In this document: positions 4,063 through 54,043 of the stretch, one piece after another | How positions within the stretch are numbered: the stretch's first letter is position 1 | How the letters are laid out: each line of letters opens with the position of its first letter | Translations under genes and position numbers: made by a program | The notes under the pieces: generated by a model | Seen by the model: only the letters and a program-made list of their open reading frames with translations | The model's database searches: none | What the model was told of the DNA's origin: nothing | Origin: Candidatus Buchananbacteria bacterium | GTDB lineage: Bacteria; Patescibacteriota; Patescibacteriia; Buchananbacterales; UBA6539 | DNA length: 64,000 nt | Reading direction: 5' to 3' | Assembly (NCBI GenBank): GCA_013359225.1 | Contig: JABWCG010000001.1 | Span: 432,916 to 496,915, forward strand

Positions 4063-4488
4063 ATGGCTAAGAAAGTAAAAACAGTTATTAAACTGCAAAT
4101 CACCGGGGGGCAAGCTAATCCAGCACCACCAGTTGGTCCGGCGCTCGGTCAGCATGGTTTAAACATTGCTGAATTCTGTCAGCGTTTTAATGAGGCAACC
4201 CGCGATCGTCAGGGCGAAGTGACACCGGTTGAAATCACTGTCTATGAAGATCGAACTTATAGTTTTATCACTAAAACCCCTCCTGCCGCTGAACTACTAA
4301 AGAAAGTGGCCGGCGTGCCCAAGGGTTCAGGCGAGCCGCTTAAGAAAAAAATCGGCAAAATCACCCGGGCTCAGATTAAAGATATCGCTCAAAAGAAAAT
4401 GCCCGATTTAAACGCCAAAGATATCGAAGGCGCAATGAAGATTATTGAAGGCACTGCCCGACAGATGGGCTTGGAAGTTGTTGACTAA
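4063..4488 (+). CDS. rplK: 50S ribosomal protein L11
   Basis: 141 aa. The N-terminus reads [35 protein letters not shown]. Confidence 0.95.
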
Positions 4489-46271: not shown

Positions 46272-46784
46272 CTACCCTTCCAATAAATAGGCTAACCGTT
46301 CACCGAATTCCTTAGCAGCAGCGGGATCTTTAGCAGTAACAATCAGATCATCAACTTCAACCGGCATTCCGGTATAATCTGCTCCCCGATCTTTTAAATT
46401 TTCTTCTTCTGAGGGAAATGCCGTCACCGTTTTGCTAATTAAAATTCCGGCATTGGCCAAAATGGACGGGGCGATACAAATTGCGCCAATTAATTTTCTT
46501 TTAGCCCTAAAATCCCGCACCAATTGTAAAACTTCACCGTCATTGAAATAGGACACCGCTCCCGGACCACCAATAAAAACTGCCGCATCGAAATCTTGCG
46601 GCTTCACCTCAGCCACCGCCATGTCCGGAGTGATTTCCGTACCAAGTTTGCCAACTGCCCGGTTGCGGGTTTTGGCGGCTACTTTCGCTTCGAAGCCCCG
46701 ATTATCCAAAATCTTTTTAGGCTCAAGAAGCTCTTCGTCGCGAAAAGCATTTTGAGCGACAATAAATACTACTCTTTTTTTCAT
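46272..46784 (-). CDS. DJ-1/PfpI-family protein
   Basis: 170 aa. The nucleophile-elbow cysteine lies in the motif IGAICIAPSILA. Confidence 0.8.
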   Translation of the reverse strand: MKKRVVFIVAQNAFRDEELLEPKKILDNRGFEAKVAAKTRNRAVGKLGTEITPDMAVAEVKPQDFDAAVFIGGPGAVSYFNDGEVLQLVRDFRAKRKLIGAICIAPSILANAGILISKTVTAFPSEEENLKDRGADYTGMPVEVDDLIVTAKDPAAAKEFGERLAYLLEG

Positions 46785-46820
46785 ACATTTTTAGCAACTT
46801 ATTTATATATTAAATATAAC

Positions 46821-46860
46821 AAAAATCTGACCCGACTGAAAGGTTAGGGGTCAGATTTTC
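46821..46860. terminator. Terminator downstream of the pilin gene (bidirectional)
   Basis: A 10-bp stem AATCTGACCC / GGGTCAGATT with a 14-nt loop, flanked by an A-run and TTTT. Confidence 0.55.
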
Positions 46861-46876
46861 TCAAATTAATCTTAGA

Positions 46877-47348
46877 TTACCGGCTAACTTCAATGTCCTG
46901 ATCGCGTTCCGGATCGCAAGAACCAACCTGGATTCTACCTGTTGCAGTTTTTCTGATATAGTAATCGGTATTTCCGGCATCAGCACCAACCGAATCTCCC
47001 AAAGGGTCAATTGGAATTGAAGCAATATATTCGTCAACTATATCAGGGGCAAGATTTAGACAAGCGCCTGCTGTAGTTTGAGCGCCACAGGCCGCATCAC
47101 AACCAATGCCATCAGTGCCCAAAACATAATAAGTGCCAACTGTTGCGCTGGCAAGTGCGTTCGGCAATGTACCGGCGTTATCAACCGTATATTTCAAAAC
47201 AGCATTCAAGATTGAATTAACTGAACTCCAACGTTCAGCATTTCTGGCTTCGGCCAATCGGCGCGCCGGATCAACGGCGACAAAAATAATGGCGGCCAAA
47301 GATAACAATCAACAGTTCAATAAGGGTAAACCCTTGATTTTTTTTCAT
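46877..47348 (-). pseudogene. Type IV major pilin gene with an apparent frameshift between the prepilin leader/N-terminus and the body
   Basis: The ATG at about 47348 encodes MKKNQGFTLIELLIVI, then reaches a stop 9 codons later. The pilin body (LAAIIFVAVDPARRLAEARNAERW... two Cys pairs ...VSR) continues in the +1 frame from 47308. Removing one T from the TTT at about 47298-47300 restores a canonical pilin. The shift coincides with the boundary of a 99-bp repeat. Confidence 0.55.
47202..47300. repeat. 99-bp segment 100% identical to 47691-47789 (pilin conserved N-terminal body region); about 123 bp with 3 mismatches when extended
   Basis: Direct comparison of the two stretches. Flanking sequence on both sides is divergent. 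Confidence 0.85.
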
Positions 47349-47362
47349 AAGGCTCCTTTTAA

Positions 47363-47788
47363 TTATCGTGAGACACGGATAGTCGGGGTTTCGCTGTTGA
47401 CCTCTTCAGCACCACAGGCGCCAACAGTTACCCGGCCACTCGGACTCTTATAAATATAATAAAATGTTTTAGTCGCACCAGCTCCCGATTCGTTTGAATC
47501 GTAAGGAATCGAAGCTAGATAGGTATCAACTAATGGTGACAGATCAATTACCGCTGTGGTGGTTGTAGCAGTCCCGCCGCCGGCAGTTTCACAGTCAGTA
47601 GCGCTCGCGCCCGTTCCAATCATATAGGTCGTACCAGCCGTCAAATTAGCCGGGGGCGCACCAGCATTATCAACCGTATATTTCAAATAGGCATTCAAGA
47701 TTGAATTAACTGAACTCCAACGTTCAGCATTTCTGGCTTCGGCCAATCGGCGCGCCGGATCAACGGCGACAAAAATAATGGCGGCCAA
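47363..47788 (-). CDS. Second pilin copy lacking the prepilin leader and first TM residues (leaderless cassette); begins at TTG, body LAAIIFVAVDPARR...
   Basis: 141-aa ORF with an identical conserved 5' segment but a divergent C-terminal variable region containing a Cys pair. No ATG, leader or Shine-Dalgarno lies upstream; the upstream sequence is ...ATGAGCTTTTAA. Confidence 0.5.
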   Translation of the reverse strand: MAAIIFVAVDPARRLAEARNAERWSSVNSILNAYLKYTVDNAGAPPANLTAGTTYMIGTGASATDCETAGGGTATTTTAVIDLSPLVDTYLASIPYDSNESGAGATKTFYYIYKSPSGRVTVGACGAEEVNSETPTIRVSR

Positions 47789-47789
47789 A
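47691..47789. repeat. Copy 2 of the 99-bp perfect repeat (see 47202-47300)
   Basis: Identical to 47202-47300. Confidence 0.85.
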
Positions 47790-47835
47790 TTAATTGCTTT
47801 AAAAGCTCATTTATAGTATATCACTAAAAATCGTT

Positions 47836-49662
47836 TTATTCTACAATATCAAAATAAATTCCGTATACCCATCCTTCCACCGAGGCGTCTTTAATCTTAT
47901 ACCAACCATCCGACTCCTCTACTACTTCATAAACACCCCCCACCGGCACCGAGCCAACTTTCTTAAAGCTGGTTGCCGCACCTTCCCGGACATTTAGATA
48001 ACCAACAGCATTTTCCTTAACTCTAATTTTGATTGGCTTAGTTTCATTTGAAACCCCCAAAACCTCCGGATTATTCTCAGCACTGCTTTCTGCTGCCGGC
48101 GTCGTCGTTGAAGTTTCAAACAGTTCAGTAAACGTACTAAACACCCAGCCCGAAATTTTGTCGTCCAACTTGATCTTATGCCACTCTTCACCGCGCTCTA
48201 ACAATTCGTATTCACTACCGGACTTTGCCTCTCCAACTTTACTGAATTCCGCGCCCGCGCCGTCACGAACGTTCGCATAGCCAGCACTGGTAGGCAGGAT
48301 GCGCACCATCGTTTTTGGCGCTAATGCCTCGGTGGTACTCGCCAATTCCCGCTGAATTGCCTGGTCTCGGAGCTGATCTAAAACATCAAGATTAATATCA
48401 GCCGGAACGAACTTGCCGGTGTCTGATGCAGGAGAAAAATAATTATAGAAATCCACACCTTGCTGTTTTGTTGTAATCACCGCCAACAAGCCGGCCAACA
48501 TTAAAATTAAAATCGCCAACCGGGTAAAAAATCTCTGCCAGTGTTTACGATCGCCTTTTTCAGGCAAAAATTTAAGCAGTGGATTTTTCCTTAGCGGTAG
48601 CAAATTAATGTCGCTGGTCTCTGGTTTTTTTTCAATCCCCCGCAATGCCAGCCCTAAAACATTGGAAAAAATAATTTCCTTGCCCTTAACGTTGCCTAAA
48701 GCTCCCGGATCCTTAATCTTGGCAAAAGGTTTGCCAAGATTTACCACCAAACCAAAGCTGTTGGCAAAATGCTGATCAATACTTGGCAACAAAGCCGAAC
48801 CACCAGCCAAAATAATTTCATCAACATGACGCTGAGCTTCAGCTTGATAAAATTCAATCAATTGTTTTGCTTCCCCGACAACTTTTTTAGATTCGTTTTG
48901 CAAGATAGCCACCACTTTACCGGTATCTTTTTTGGAGTCAAAACCCGTTTTAATCTTCAATTCATTGGCGCTCTTTTCAGTTATCTTTTTAGCGGCCATA
49001 ATCGCTTTAGTGAACCGGCCGCCGGCAACCTTCACCACGCCACTAGCTCTAATGCCCTGGCGATCAAAAATGGTTAGGTTAGTCGTTCGTGAACCAATAT
49101 CCATCAACAGCTTGGCCGATTTTTTATTATTAACGTCAATCAGAATACGTGCCAAACTTAATGATTCTAAATCAAAAGCAATCGGCTTTAAGCCAATTGC
49201 TTCAAGTACTTCAACGTAGGCGTCGACAACTTTTACCGGCACTGCCGCATAAAAGATTTCTTGTGACGCACCCTCAACGGTAATGGTTTTAAAATCGTAA
49301 TAAACTTCTGATGATTTAAACGGAATTACTTCTTCCGCCTTAAAGGGAATTGTATTTTTTATTTCTTTATGTTTCAGTCCGGCGGGTAATTTGAAAACTG
49401 TTGTAAAAACCTGCGAATCAGGCAACGACAGCACACAAAAAGGCGTTCTGATTTTTTGCGGTTTTGCCGAATCAAGCAATTTAACCAGACTGTCTTGAAG
49501 CTTCTTTTTATCTTTAATAATACCGTCTTTAACCAGGCTGGTTTTAAAAACTGAACGAGCGTAAGCAGTAATCTTAGGCTTACCAAAAAGCGGCTTCGTC
49601 AACTGCAAGGCCTCAATTGAATAATCTGAAATGTCCAAACCAAAAATTTCTTTTTTTACCAT
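47836..49662 (-). CDS. pilM: Type IV pilus assembly PilM-PilN-like fusion with two C-terminal SH3b-like domains; start at MVKKEIFGLDIS after AGGAGG
   Basis: The N-terminal actin-like PilM fold is present, about 350 aa. A TM segment follows (RFFTRLAILILMLAGLLAVI). Two repeats of about 60 aa close the protein (NVRDGAGAEFSKVG...GWVFSTF and NVREGAATSFKKVG...GWVYGIYF). Confidence 0.75.
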   Translation of the reverse strand: MVKKEIFGLDISDYSIEALQLTKPLFGKPKITAYARSVFKTSLVKDGIIKDKKKLQDSLVKLLDSAKPQKIRTPFCVLSLPDSQVFTTVFKLPAGLKHKEIKNTIPFKAEEVIPFKSSEVYYDFKTITVEGASQEIFYAAVPVKVVDAYVEVLEAIGLKPIAFDLESLSLARILIDVNNKKSAKLLMDIGSRTTNLTIFDRQGIRASGVVKVAGGRFTKAIMAAKKITEKSANELKIKTGFDSKKDTGKVVAILQNESKKVVGEAKQLIEFYQAEAQRHVDEIILAGGSALLPSIDQHFANSFGLVVNLGKPFAKIKDPGALGNVKGKEIIFSNVLGLALRGIEKKPETSDINLLPLRKNPLLKFLPEKGDRKHWQRFFTRLAILILMLAGLLAVITTKQQGVDFYNYFSPASDTGKFVPADINLDVLDQLRDQAIQRELASTTEALAPKTMVRILPTSAGYANVRDGAGAEFSKVGEAKSGSEYELLERGEEWHKIKLDDKISGWVFSTFTELFETSTTTPAAESSAENNPEVLGVSNETKPIKIRVKENAVGYLNVREGAATSFKKVGSVPVGGVYEVVEESDGWYKIKDASVEGWVYGIYFDIVE

Positions 49663-49669
49663 TTTGTTT

Positions 49670-50044
49670 TTATTCCTCCTGCCAAGAGATAACTGCAAGA
49701 TTGTTATCAACCTGGATTTCTATTTTTTGATGATAGGTATCAACGGTACCGGTTGCGGTTACTGTTGCTATATTACCGCTCACCTCTACCGTTAGTATAC
49801 AAGAATTCGAACCAATTGACAACGTTCCAACATAATCAACAAAATTATTGCGCAGACGCTCAAGTCCGTCTTCGATACAAGCATTGGCCAAGTTGCGAGC
49901 AATCGCTGCTTGAGTACTGCTAAAGCTAGATTGCAACTCATCAACGCCAGACAAGCTAATTGATAAACCAATCGCCAAGCCGGCAACGGCAACAATTAAA
50001 AGCGCGATCAATGCAATATATCCTTTTGGTTTAGTAGTATACAT
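49670..50044 (-). CDS. Minor pilin/pseudopilin-like protein; start at the internal Met MYTTKPKGYIALIALLIVAVAGL
   Basis: The N-terminal hydrophobic helix resembles a degenerate prepilin N-terminus. A GGAGG Shine-Dalgarno lies upstream of this Met. Confidence 0.45.
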   Translation of the reverse strand: MYTTKPKGYIALIALLIVAVAGLAIGLSISLSGVDELQSSFSSTQAAIARNLANACIEDGLERLRNNFVDYVGTLSIGSNSCILTVEVSGNIATVTATGTVDTYHQKIEIQVDNNLAVISWQEE

Positions 50045-50048
50045 TTGT

Positions 50049-50549
50049 TTATTTCCTCCCCCGCAATTCAGCAGAAAATATCGCTGTCGTACTGGCGGCA
50101 TATTCAGGCTGATTGCTTGGATTATCGTACTCCAAACGCAATGTCACGGCAACATTTTTCGTTCTGGCGTCGTATGATTGATCGGCAAAAACTCCGGTTA
50201 CCTTAACCGAGGTGTCATGAAGAATAATCAGATTACTAAAGCCGACTTGTCTGGTCAGGGTGCTGTTAGCTGTGTCAAAATGCAAAGTAATATCATCACC
50301 GGGCATAGTTAACACTAAATTGTCATCGCTAATACTAGTGATATCCTGAGCCGCCCTAATGTCTTTGGTAATAATATTTGAAATAAACCGCAACTGCTGG
50401 TTAATATCTTGACTGGTATAATTTTTAGTTTGGCCGCTTAACATGTCAAGCATTAAATAAGAAATGCTAACCAAGATAATTGAAACGATTGCCAAATACA
50501 ATATCAATTCAATTAAGGTAAACCCTGATTGTTTTTGAGACTTTTTCAT
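50049..50549 (-). CDS. Type IV pilin-like (pseudopilin) protein with the prepilin motif KQSGFTLIEL
   Basis: 166 aa. The N-terminus reads MKKSQKQSGFTLIELILYLAIVSIIL. Confidence 0.7.
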   Translation of the reverse strand: MKKSQKQSGFTLIELILYLAIVSIILVSISYLMLDMLSGQTKNYTSQDINQQLRFISNIITKDIRAAQDITSISDDNLVLTMPGDDITLHFDTANSTLTRQVGFSNLIILHDTSVKVTGVFADQSYDARTKNVAVTLRLEYDNPSNQPEYAASTTAIFSAELRGRK

Positions 50550-53500
50550 TATGGTAAATAATTTATTTTGACTGATTCAAGACTTGGCGTGTTAACCCCG
50601 TCACCCACTAATTCGGCGCGATACTGCACCCAGCGGTTGAAGTTTAAATCAGCCGGAATAATTGATCCGCCACTATTGGTAAAGTAGGTACCTGGTCCGT
50701 TGTCACCGTACCAGGCGGTCCAGCTTCCGGGAAGACCTGCCGCGTCTGGAGCCGTTCTGACTTGCATTTTAATGTCACAATCGGGATTACACGACGGCAC
50801 TGTTTCCTCCCAAGTGATGATATTAACTGATGCGTCGCCACCCATATCAAATGCCGACGATTCAAGCCAACCATTAGTTGCATACCCAGTTCCTCCAGCA
50901 CCCGCCGCCTGGCCCCAGCCGATTTGAACATTGTCCAGTTCAACAGACTGTGCACCATTGCTGGATAAAAATGCCTTAAACATAATCTGCCCCGTTGTAG
51001 TCGGAAAACTGGCAATATTAGCATTAACTTCAACAGCAGTGTTACCGGAGTTTACCGGCACTCCCGAACTGGTCCAACTGGCACCATTCCAAAACTGCCA
51101 GGTCGCGCCGTTGTCATCAGAAAGCTGATAATAAATTTCACCGCTGTTTTTATTGGCTGTTTCTGTAAATGAAGCCCACGTGTCTAAGTCCGCTACAGTC
51201 AGGGCATTTATAGGGACAATTGATGGATTTGTTGTTGAATAGCTGCCCGACTCACTAATTTGAATTGTCTTTACCCAGCCGTCAGCGCCCGGACCAGTAT
51301 AACCAACGGCCAAATAATCTGATGACAATGCGATCAGGCTTGGTGCATTAGCATTTACCGTATCAAATTCATACGTTGCAATAACTGAATCCGAGGTGTT
51401 CCCGGTGTTATCAACAGTAAACATTGCCACAAAACCGTCGTTACCGTTGCCGCGATAAGCCACGGCATAGTAATCGTCAAACCAATGAACAACGCTCGGT
51501 TCATACCCATTACTTGAATCAAACTCCAAGCTGTCAATTATCACGTTTGAAATATTACCCGCGCCATCAATCGCAAACGTTCGCACCCAGCCATCAGCGC
51601 CCGAACCGCGGTAGGCGACCGCATACACATCGCCGGCAACATGGATCAGGTCTGGCTCAAAACCGTTTGCCGTATCATACTCAAAATTATCAATTATCAA
51701 ATTGCCAATGTTACCTGAACCGTTAATAGTAAAAGTTTTCACCCAGCCGTCATCTCCCGGACCCTGATAGGCGACCGCATACACATCGCCCGCAACATGG
51801 ATCAGGTCTGGTCGACGACCATTGTTAGTATCAAACTCCAGCCGGTCAATCGTGGTATTAGAAATATTACCGCTACCGTCAATAGTAAAAGTTTTCACCC
51901 AGCCGTCATCTCCCGGACCGCGGTAGGCTACGGCGTAAACGGTCGCGGAAACCTGAACGATACTTGGTTCACGTCCATTGTTAGTATCAAACTCCAGCCG
52001 GTCAATCGTGGTATTAGAAATATTACCAAAGTTATCAATAGTCAGAGTTGCAACAAAACCGTCAGCGCCCGAACCGCGGTAGGCGACCGCATACACATCG
52101 CCCGCAACATGGATCAGGTCTGGCTCAAAACCGTTATACATGTCAAACTCCAGCTGGTCAATCGTGGTGTTAGAAATATTACCGCTACCGTCAATAGTAA
52201 AAGTTTTCACCCAGCCGTCATCTCCCGGTCCTTGATAGACGGCAGCATAAATGTTGCCAAAAATCGGCAACACCTCAACATAAAGACCCTCAGCGGTATC
52301 AAATTCTAGACTATCAATAAACGGCGAACTAAATCCGTTAACTGTTGCACCCGACGTTTTAAGCCGGGCGATCCCACTGCCAACCTCAATATTGTTTGCA
52401 TCATAAACATACTCAGCCGGCTCTAAAAAAGTCCAGTCATAGTACTGGGAACAACTGATACTGATTTCATCAAGCTGAACAAACGCCGCACCATCGCTCT
52501 CTAAAAATGCCCGAAAGATTATTTGAGCACTGGTGGTTGAAAAATTTTGGATCGCTGAATTGACCACGCTGGCCTGGTTATAATCAGCCGGACCTGCAAT
52601 CGTCCAACTGGCACCATTCCAAAACTGCCAGGTCGCGCCGTTGTCATCAGAAAGCTGATAATAAATTTCACCGCCGTTTTTATTCGCCGTTTCCGTAAAC
52701 GAAGTCCAACGATCGATACCGCTAACTAGATGACTACTGCTTGGACCAATCGTCGGGCGAGTAGTCGGATAATTTGACGACTGTTGCCAATTCAAAACAA
52801 CATTATCGTACCCAATCTGAAAGGGTCCGTTGGATGGGCCTCCGGGAGTCTCAACCCAAGCGGCAATTTTTAAATAGTATGTTCCGGCAGTTGCTAATTT
52901 TGAAGAAACATCAATATTAATTTGAGAATTCCAGCTCTGCGTCGACGTTATTTCGCCGGAAGACCAGACTTCTTGGCCAATCACCGGCGCACCGGGCGAC
53001 GAATCAACAAAAACATACAGTTTAAAAGTATTAGGTGTTGCATCATACTGGCTCACCTGCCAGTCAAAACTTACTGTTGCGCTCGGATTATTAACAGTCG
53101 TGGTAAACGACTGATACCCATAGCCCCCTACTTCGTCATTGCTACCAGCCGGGACAGTAATATACACCCAGCCTCCTGGATTACCGCCGACAGATTGCCA
53201 ACCGCCAGTAACGTCAGCCTCACCACCGCCCTGATTCCAATCAGCATACGACCAACCGGAAATATCGGTAGTAAACCCCGGATTAATAGTCAAATCAGAC
53301 ACGCCGCCAGGAGCGGAAACTAGTTGGGCAAATCCGCCGGCAATTTCAATTTCACCGGGAGTATACACATACTCGGCATCTGTGGTAAAAGACCAAACGT
53401 TTGTCCCACAACCGCCGCCGGTAAGAGGCGCCAAAGTCACCTGTCCGGCAGTGGCAACATTAACATTTCCGTCATCGCTAGCATACCGAGTATTGTCAGA

Positions 53501-54043
53501 CCAGACGGTCTGCCCGGAGGCGCCAACCCAGTTCGTTTGAATCCAATCGTCAGTCTGCCAAGTGGTCAAATAGGAAACCAGCTCAACCAAATTGCCGATG
53601 CCATTAATCGACGTATAATCAACCTGAACGGTAACTTTTTTGGTGTGCACATCAACGACTGATCCTGGATCAGCACAATCAACAATTTCACCGCCGCCAT
53701 CTCGACAAGCGTCAGCAATACTGACTGTTCTGGTATAATCATCATCAATCGCTTCGCTGGTGCCGGCAAACGTCCAATGCCCGCTTGAGTTATCAAGGCC
53801 ATGAACGCCATTCTCCAATAAATTCCAAGCTTGTCGCCTAATTGACCACGCTGCTTCAATACCTTCCTGGGCATGAAGCAATGCCACATCACGCTGGCTC
53901 GCTTGGACATCGCTGCCATACGAACTCATTAATAAACCGATTAATGCCGTTGCAAATAAACCAAAAAGCGCGACGGCCAGTATTACTTCCACCAAACCGA
54001 CACCTTTGGAATAAAATTTTTGACGGCTAATTTGGGGCATCAA
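50549..54043 (-). CDS. Giant pilin-like protein (1164 aa): prepilin-type N-terminus, two BNR/Asp-box modules, and about 7 repeats of 47 aa predicted to form a beta-propeller; putative pilus tip adhesin
   Basis: The N-terminus reads KGVGLVEVILAVALFGLFATAL. The module TWASFTETANKNGGEIYYQLSDDNGATWQFWNGASWT occurs twice. The unit YAVAYRGPGDDGWVKTFTIDGSGNISNTTIDRLEFDTNNGR.PDLIHVAGDV recurs at least 6 times. Confidence 0.8.
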   Translation of the reverse strand: MMPQISRQKFYSKGVGLVEVILAVALFGLFATALIGLLMSSYGSDVQASQRDVALLHAQEGIEAAWSIRRQAWNLLENGVHGLDNSSGHWTFAGTSEAIDDDYTRTVSIADACRDGGGEIVDCADPGSVVDVHTKKVTVQVDYTSINGIGNLVELVSYLTTWQTDDWIQTNWVGASGQTVWSDNTRYASDDGNVNVATAGQVTLAPLTGGGCGTNVWSFTTDAEYVYTPGEIEIAGGFAQLVSAPGGVSDLTINPGFTTDISGWSYADWNQGGGEADVTGGWQSVGGNPGGWVYITVPAGSNDEVGGYGYQSFTTTVNNPSATVSFDWQVSQYDATPNTFKLYVFVDSSPGAPVIGQEVWSSGEITSTQSWNSQINIDVSSKLATAGTYYLKIAAWVETPGGPSNGPFQIGYDNVVLNWQQSSNYPTTRPTIGPSSSHLVSGIDRWTSFTETANKNGGEIYYQLSDDNGATWQFWNGASWTIAGPADYNQASVVNSAIQNFSTTSAQIIFRAFLESDGAAFVQLDEISISCSQYYDWTFLEPAEYVYDANNIEVGSGIARLKTSGATVNGFSSPFIDSLEFDTAEGLYVEVLPIFGNIYAAVYQGPGDDGWVKTFTIDGSGNISNTTIDQLEFDMYNGFEPDLIHVAGDVYAVAYRGSGADGFVATLTIDNFGNISNTTIDRLEFDTNNGREPSIVQVSATVYAVAYRGPGDDGWVKTFTIDGSGNISNTTIDRLEFDTNNGRRPDLIHVAGDVYAVAYQGPGDDGWVKTFTINGSGNIGNLIIDNFEYDTANGFEPDLIHVAGDVYAVAYRGSGADGWVRTFAIDGAGNISNVIIDSLEFDSSNGYEPSVVHWFDDYYAVAYRGNGNDGFVAMFTVDNTGNTSDSVIATYEFDTVNANAPSLIALSSDYLAVGYTGPGADGWVKTIQISESGSYSTTNPSIVPINALTVADLDTWASFTETANKNSGEIYYQLSDDNGATWQFWNGASWTSSGVPVNSGNTAVEVNANIASFPTTTGQIMFKAFLSSNGAQSVELDNVQIGWGQAAGAGGTGYATNGWLESSAFDMGGDASVNIITWEETVPSCNPDCDIKMQVRTAPDAAGLPGSWTAWYGDNGPGTYFTNSGGSIIPADLNFNRWVQYRAELVGDGVNTPSLESVKINYLP
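51440..52290. repeat. Intragenic tandem DNA repeats (about 141-bp period, near-identical copies) encoding the propeller blades of the giant pilin-like protein
   Basis: Strings such as ccgtcatctcccggaccgcggtaggc..gcatacacatcgcccgcaacatggatcaggtctgg recur. The antisense ORF 51797-52309 is a by-product of these repeats. Confidence 0.7.

Follow-up and report, generated by a model that had tools for sequence, protein, structure and literature searches.

The pilin pair and its operon

In the window, the whole 64,000-nt stretch of DNA analysed, which comes from a Candidatus Buchananbacteria (Patescibacteria/CPR) genome, a type IV pilus operon ends in two tandem pilin bodies, with all genes here on the minus strand (Table 1). 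The last machinery gene ahead of the pair encodes a PilM-SH3 protein, which likewise precedes the pilins in the related genomes L002, L004 and L013 (labels of this form denote the genomes compared). The PilM protein (624 aa) has a predicted membrane-spanning stretch, judged by eye, and two C-terminal SH3 domains, a fusion also found in those three genomes. Among the minor-pilin-like frames, the 1164-aa ORF (50549-54043, minus strand) is flanked by small minor pilins with the N-methyl motif and matched only DUF5643, weakly and below threshold; its product may be a giant pilin component of the tip or adhesin-like kind. The hairpin after the pair, 100% complementary in its stem, was missed by the terminator scan because its loop exceeds 8 nt, and beyond it lie PfpI and then thioredoxin reductase genes. 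On the minus strand the same scan gave no terminator-like site between the two pilin genes, and a consensus scan for sigma-70 promoters and terminators returned nothing useful at the expected sites.

Table 1. Positions in the window of the pilin pair, its lesions and the neighbouring pilus genes.
Feature	Position	Strand	Details
Response regulator	57834-57415	-	First listed gene of the pilus operon
PilB ATPase	57415-55733	-	Profile matches
PilC platform protein	55806-54496	-	Profile matches
Minor-pilin-like ORFs (n = 4)	Between PilC and PilM	-	One of 1164 aa
PilM-like assembly protein with two SH3 domains	47836-49710	-	Pfam PilM_2 6.6e-35, SH3_3 9.9e-21; TIGR01175 pilM
Retained pilin promoter and start of 5'UTR	47790-47835	-	Extended -10 TGaTATACT 47823-47815, then AGCT...CAATTAA; ends at left edge of the deletion
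Upstream pilin (copy 2), NAYLKY type	47363-47789	-	5'-truncated; body ORF intact, 141 codons from TTG 47788
Upstream tract copy	47691-47789	-	Codons L16-A48 of the mature pilin; perfect identity to the downstream tract copy
Spacer between pilin genes	47349-47362	-	14 nt; RBS AAGGAG 47358-47353 for the downstream gene, read from the sequence
Leader-bearing stub ORF	47271-47348	-	MKKNQGFTLIELLIVIFGRHYFCRR then stop; prepilin leader and 10 mature residues, then out of frame
14-nt deletion junction	47300-47301	-	GCN ATT ATY GCN AT (AIIAI minus 1 nt) absent between ATC (I10) and T-TTG (L16)
Downstream tract copy	47202-47300	-	Perfect identity to the upstream tract copy
Downstream pilin body (copy 1), NAVLKY type	46877-47300	-	+1 frame relative to its own leader; otherwise intact ORF
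Likely operon terminator	46822-46859	-	Inverted repeat I1: hairpin with 12-bp stem and 14-nt loop, then a T run

Major pilin genes of this kind are of the GFTLIELLIVIAIIAILAAIIFVAVDP type. Assignment to the type IV prepilins was based on a class III signal peptide and on the families PF07963 and TIGR02532. A protein search with the joined downstream sequence returned 518 relatives, and the best 120 of these are nearly all prepilins of 150-185 aa with the N-methylation motif, coming from Patescibacteria, many of them Candidatus Buchananbacteria, with several named PilA or prepilin by their sources. PF07963 is carried by 119 of these best 120, establishing homology of the body to bona fide prepilins, and the downstream stub itself opens with a prepilin leader (MKKNQG/FTLIELLIVI), with TIGR02532 matching the joined sequence at E 2e-4, above the cutoff. 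The downstream body is 84% identical to the complete 161-aa prepilin P0001; above that level, the 518-match search found only this same MAG. Its 99%-identical match, P0002, is HUU49_02555 (140 aa), from a Candidatus Buchananbacteria MAG with a 601,517-bp contig, and represents the NCBI annotation of this genome's own leaderless downstream body. Exact-protein look-ups of the upstream ORF and of P0002 gave no match.

Leader, hydrophobic helix and globular domain do not share one reading frame in either gene. The downstream gene starts with an ATG at 47348 and reads MKKNQGFTLIELLIVI, followed by FGRHYFCRR and a stop 9 codons past I10, while the pilin body continues in a +1-frame ORF at 47308-46877. 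The upstream gene begins at L16, with neither RBS, start codon nor leader, and gave no family match in the profile search. The two tract copies agree at 99 of 99 positions, with similarity reaching 130 nt at 96%, and the C-terminal parts of the two genes are 51% identical at the nucleotide level. Perfect identity starts at 47300, the first base past the frame break, the preceding minus-strand bases being C (47301) in the downstream copy and A (47790) in the upstream copy. ORFs and alignment thus bear out the description in the earlier note of a tandem pair sharing a 99-bp identical segment, with the leader-bearing copy broken in frame exactly at the 5' edge of that segment and the other copy leaderless with a divergent C-terminal part; to the latter the missing RBS can be added.

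In the 64-kb window a 41-nt piece of the tract has two exact occurrences, against 0 expected from shuffles, and allowing up to 3 mismatches revealed no copies of the tract in the window beyond these two. Searches for the exact 41-nt pattern in GTDB representative genomes and for a 32-nt pattern in JGI metagenomes each gave 0 matches, and no second assembly of the species turned up in these collections.

Sequence exchange between the two genes in related genomes

The same two genes, in the same order and followed by PfpI, were found in four independent related assemblies: L001, L002/L003 (two NCBI assemblies) and L008/L009. The upstream gene is of the NAYLKY type and the downstream gene of the NAVLKY type throughout. 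In L002/L003 the pair directly follows PilM-SH3, and both genes are complete, each with its own RBS, ATG and leader. The upstream gene of L001 runs off the contig end, still reading LIVIAIIAIL, past the break point of the window. GTDB genomes that are less closely related (L010-L014) encode either a single pilin or two complete ones, and the NAYLKY-type pilins there carry leaders. Since its orthologues in relatives are complete genes, the upstream copy is not a conserved silent cassette.

Identity between the two genes is distributed very unevenly. The segment V24-A48 (75 nt) is 99% identical from copy to copy, both within the window and within L001, as against 80-88% between genomes, and the remaining ~320 nt are 74-77% identical between orthologues but 51% identical between the two copies of one genome. 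Clustering accordingly follows the genome for the tract and the orthologue for the bodies. Synonymous sites have reached saturation between the orthologues of the window and those of L001 (dS 1.7-2.5, with dN/dS about 0.05), whereas dS in the tract within the genome is 0.06; protein-level constraint therefore cannot explain the identity of the tract. Perfect runs measure 99 nt in the window, at least 125 nt in L001, at least 55 nt in L008 and 162 nt in L002/L003, where the run begins 1 nt ahead of the ATG; these are separate tracts, each with lineage-specific synonymous states. In the more distant pairs of L011 and L013 the copies are only about 75% identical.

Recurrent interlocus gene conversion between two normal paralogues is thus well supported by these comparisons, with the C-terminal parts remaining distinct and, as the substitution pattern shows, under purifying selection. 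The suggestion of ongoing conversion between the copies in the earlier note is upheld by tract identity within genomes set against saturated dS between orthologues, and relatives without an identical tract, which would have spoken against it, were not encountered among L001, L002/L003 and L008, each of which has a tract of its own. A literature search on pilin gene conversion in Patescibacteria found no paper.

Indels within the tract also spread from copy to copy, as the presence of a 63-nt insertion in both L002 copies shows. This insertion lies in the leaders of both pilins (L002:3517-3680 and 4245-4408, also in L003), giving a 27-residue leader, MKKNQEFT-SHLSGWGRVKQLSSNKKDD-GFTLIELL, and belongs to the perfectly identical 162 nt. 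Within the insertion, a 23-nt motif, CACCTTTCAGGGTGGGGGAGGGT, has a second occurrence at 78% in the 170-nt spacer separating the two genes, hinting at a small repeat element; an Rfam scan of L002 gave no family for this odd spacer and leader element. Short-read contigs of two relatives (L001:1 and L008:1) start within the identical 5' tract of the upstream pilin. Assemblies thus regularly break in this tract, and upstream pilins will often be reported as 5'-truncated for purely technical reasons.

Both genes lack 5' sequence in the assembly

In this assembly both genes are deleted at their 5' ends. The 14-nt gap in the downstream gene was seen against L001, L002 and L008 at the DNA level and against the homologues P0001-P0015 at the protein level. 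Close homologues all read GFTLIELLIVI-AIIAI-LAAIIFVAVDPARRLAEARN, and the window reads as far as LIVI and then, one base out of frame, LAAIIFVAVDP. The intact form of the downstream junction would be GTTATC-GCNATTATYGCNAT-TTTGGCC; the present junctions of the assembly are GTTATCTTTGGCCGCC and CAATTAATTTGGCCGCC. The 14-nt deletion has no obvious microhomology. Recoding of TGA was considered and rejected, the body frame 5' of L16 reading as a leader in no genetic code.

The stub ORF would encode a 25-aa peptide, MKKNQG/FTLIELLIVIFGRHYFCRR, with an intact prepilin-peptidase site and a strong RBS; if the lesion is real, this peptide could still be made and processed.

In the upstream gene the distal 5'UTR, RBS, ATG and leader are gone, as is the mature sequence up to codon 15 but for 1 nt. 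The missing coding part amounts to 16 codons of leader and helix plus the same 14 nt, and the whole loss is estimated at ~90-120 nt by comparison with L012, which has 57 nt more of 5'UTR with RBS before the ATG, and with L002, which has about 30 nt. The 46-nt flank that remains matches, over its whole length, the first part of the L012 spacer between PilM and the pilin gene (p=0.004 relative to shuffled sequences); alignment with L002 and L010 alone was not significant (p=0.13 and 0.42). The pattern TGnTATAAT-N6-AGCT is also present in the PilM-pilin spacers of L010 and L012. Together these features suggest that a strong promoter located downstream of pilM serves the pilin pair alone, apart from the machinery genes. 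The flank was also considered as a decayed leader; it has no similarity to pilin leaders (local alignment p=0.69) and corresponds to the native promoter and 5'UTR. With the leader lost from one gene and out of frame in the other, neither would be expected to yield a processable prepilin.

On the right, both deletions stop at the T run ahead of L16, which is also the point where identity between the copies starts. By our own estimate, the chance of two independent deletions coinciding to within 0-2 nt in a tract of ~160 nt is roughly 1-3%, or a few percent.

Origin of the lesions and likeness to known systems

Restoration of a full downstream pilin by correcting a 1-nt sequencing error, by slippage at the TTT or by a programmed +1 ribosomal frameshift was suggested by the two frames, which are offset by +1 at ATC-TTT-GG, and the earlier note had named both the error and a slippage-prone TTT. 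This account is scarcely credible, as the true difference is 14 nt. A conserved proline occupies mature position 26 in 119 of 119 leader-bearing homologues among the best 120 of the 518, and any 1-nt repair of the downstream copy (giving FTLIELLIVI-LAAIIF) would place it at position 21, with a helix 5 residues shorter than in all 119; with 14 nt missing and the spacing invariant, none of the three could restore a normal pilin. The shift site is no repeat tract, the sole homopolymer of at least 6 at the locus being an A8 at 47338-47345, at the start of the leader and in frame, which speaks against slipped-strand phase variation. Programmed frameshifting fails as well: there is no slippery heptamer and no nearby SD-like stimulator, the relatives are unshifted, and the product would lack 5 residues of a segment invariant in length. 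A programmed pilin variation or on/off system would instead make the promoter-bearing leaderless copy a donor and the downstream gene an expression gene in the phase-off state; the recombination partners for switching would be these two genes themselves, other pilin loci or DNA that the pilus had taken up. The window would then show the 'off' state of a recombination-driven pilin switch, a counterpart in CPR to phase or antigenic variation of pilins. In its favour are the evident activity of conversion between the copies and a superficial likeness of the layout to Neisseria pilS/pilE with its non-piliated deletion variants, but this reading is highly improbable. The silent cassette upstream of an expression locus proposed in the earlier note is contradicted by the complete orthologue in L002/L003, by the leaders in L010-L014 and by those in 119 of the best 120 homologues, the sole leaderless protein among these being this MAG's own. 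Moreover, the 64-kb window holds no donor for the missing AIIAI segment, conversion homogenises the conserved rather than the variable part, and neither a G4 motif nor a repeat tract accompanies the shift. A diversity-generating retroelement, a shufflon and an invertase were likewise rejected, the differences not being adenine-specific, the repeats being direct, and no recombinase or reverse transcriptase lying nearby.

A local fault introduced at a short tandem repeat during assembly, polishing or curation, with the junctions made in silico, is unlikely but carries considerably more weight than either of these. The true genome would then resemble L002, with both prepilin genes intact and sharing an identical 5' tract of ~160 nt. 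Both anomalies fall exactly at the repeat edge, where assemblers and polishers fail, the contigs of L001 and L008 end within this repeat, strong purifying selection acts on both bodies, whose ORFs are intact, and the species is known from this MAG only. Against this, a de Bruijn assembler invents no junction k-mers and drops neither 14 nt nor a leader present in the reads, and the upstream flank is a genuine promoter and 5'UTR joined to the tract, having the appearance of a real deletion and not of a collapse. The 99-nt repeat is short enough for reads or a large k to span, in keeping with a contig that runs through it. The rest of the window is free of indel damage, with 91% of it in long ORFs, ~70 homopolymers (A/T runs of at least 7, G/C runs of at least 6) inside uninterrupted ORFs, and the other genes checked complete with full-length domain matches.

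On balance, both tandem genes have probably been inactivated, really and recently, by 5' deletions linked to each other through conversion. The proposal of the earlier note that the leader-bearing copy was recently pseudogenised is in essence the conclusion reached here, widened to both copies. The normal state would be two complete prepilin genes, each with its own RBS and leader, whose 5' parts (leader, hydrophobic helix and first part of the head) are repeatedly homogenised by conversion. From this state the downstream gene would have lost 14 nt within the hydrophobic helix, so that its leader runs into a stop after 25 codons, and the upstream gene would have lost ~90-120 nt, from the 5'UTR to codon 15, while keeping its promoter. 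The damage would be recent, because the body ORFs are intact. Since an independent coincidence at one base is unlikely, we infer that the lesions are linked through conversion; the linking step itself is speculative, and two routes can be envisaged. The 14-nt deletion may have arisen once and been homogenised into both genes, as with the L002 insertion, after which a second deletion would have removed the upstream 5'UTR and leader between TT(T) microhomologies (CAATTAA-TT... and ATC-TTT-GG). On the other route, truncation of the upstream gene would have come first; a subsequent break in the downstream gene, within the stretch encoding the helix, would then have been repaired on the truncated copy and the non-homologous tail trimmed back to the limit of homology. 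Tandem duplication, unequal crossover, and circle excision with reintegration were each rejected as a single event: with bodies that are old orthologous paralogues, none of them yields the order seen. Speaking against decay, it would be biologically strange for both major pilins to be lost from an otherwise intact pilus operon, unless the remaining ~540 kb of the contig contain further pilin genes.

In Neisseria, the silent pilS copies are conserved and promoterless, donate variable segments to pilE and require a G4 element; variants in which pilE has lost its 5' part are non-piliated, an off state. The present locus shares with this system a leaderless pilin copy adjoining a leader-bearing copy, non-reciprocal transfer between copies and 5' loss. 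Unlike pilS, the upstream copy here keeps a promoter, its orthologues are complete genes and it is the conserved segment that is transferred; unlike pilE, the leader-bearing 'expression' copy is broken by the 14-nt deletion, so that the pair has no intact expression locus. A search of both strands of 46700-48100 for four runs of at least three G found no such motif. The likeness to pilE/pilS is only superficial.

A closer parallel in gene content is found in Streptococcus sanguinis, where the genes of PilE1 and PilE2 lie side by side. These two similar major pilins belong to one pilus system and form heteropolymeric pili (PMC6916266). The pair described here resembles them as a tandem major-pilin pair, both members being complete prepilins in the relatives of this genome, and differs in that both genes are damaged and that its bodies (51% nucleotide identity) are far more divergent than the 5' tract. 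In the Staphylococcus aureus lpl cluster, tandem paralogues evolve in concert, by unequal recombination or interlocus gene conversion at a conserved internal segment (PMC2568036). The likeness lies in the conserved segment as recombination substrate and in a repeat unit made of the 3' part of one ORF, the spacer and the 5' part of the next, here 489 nt; the differences are that only two copies are present here, in a number that looks stable across four genomes, and that two deletions lie at the tract edge.

Gene conversion of a tandem pilin pair is no new mechanism. The better-supported general point is that the tandem major-pilin paralogues of this lineage undergo recurrent conversion limited to the 5' part, which would keep the assembly interface identical while the surface-exposed parts diverge, and which would also let 5' damage spread or cluster. 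If the lesions are real, both subunit genes have just been lost from an otherwise intact type IV pilus operon, providing a natural knockout in CPR/Patescibacteria, where pili are considered central both for attachment and for taking up DNA. As a caveat for annotation, the leaderless body is called a 140-aa 'hypothetical protein' by NCBI.
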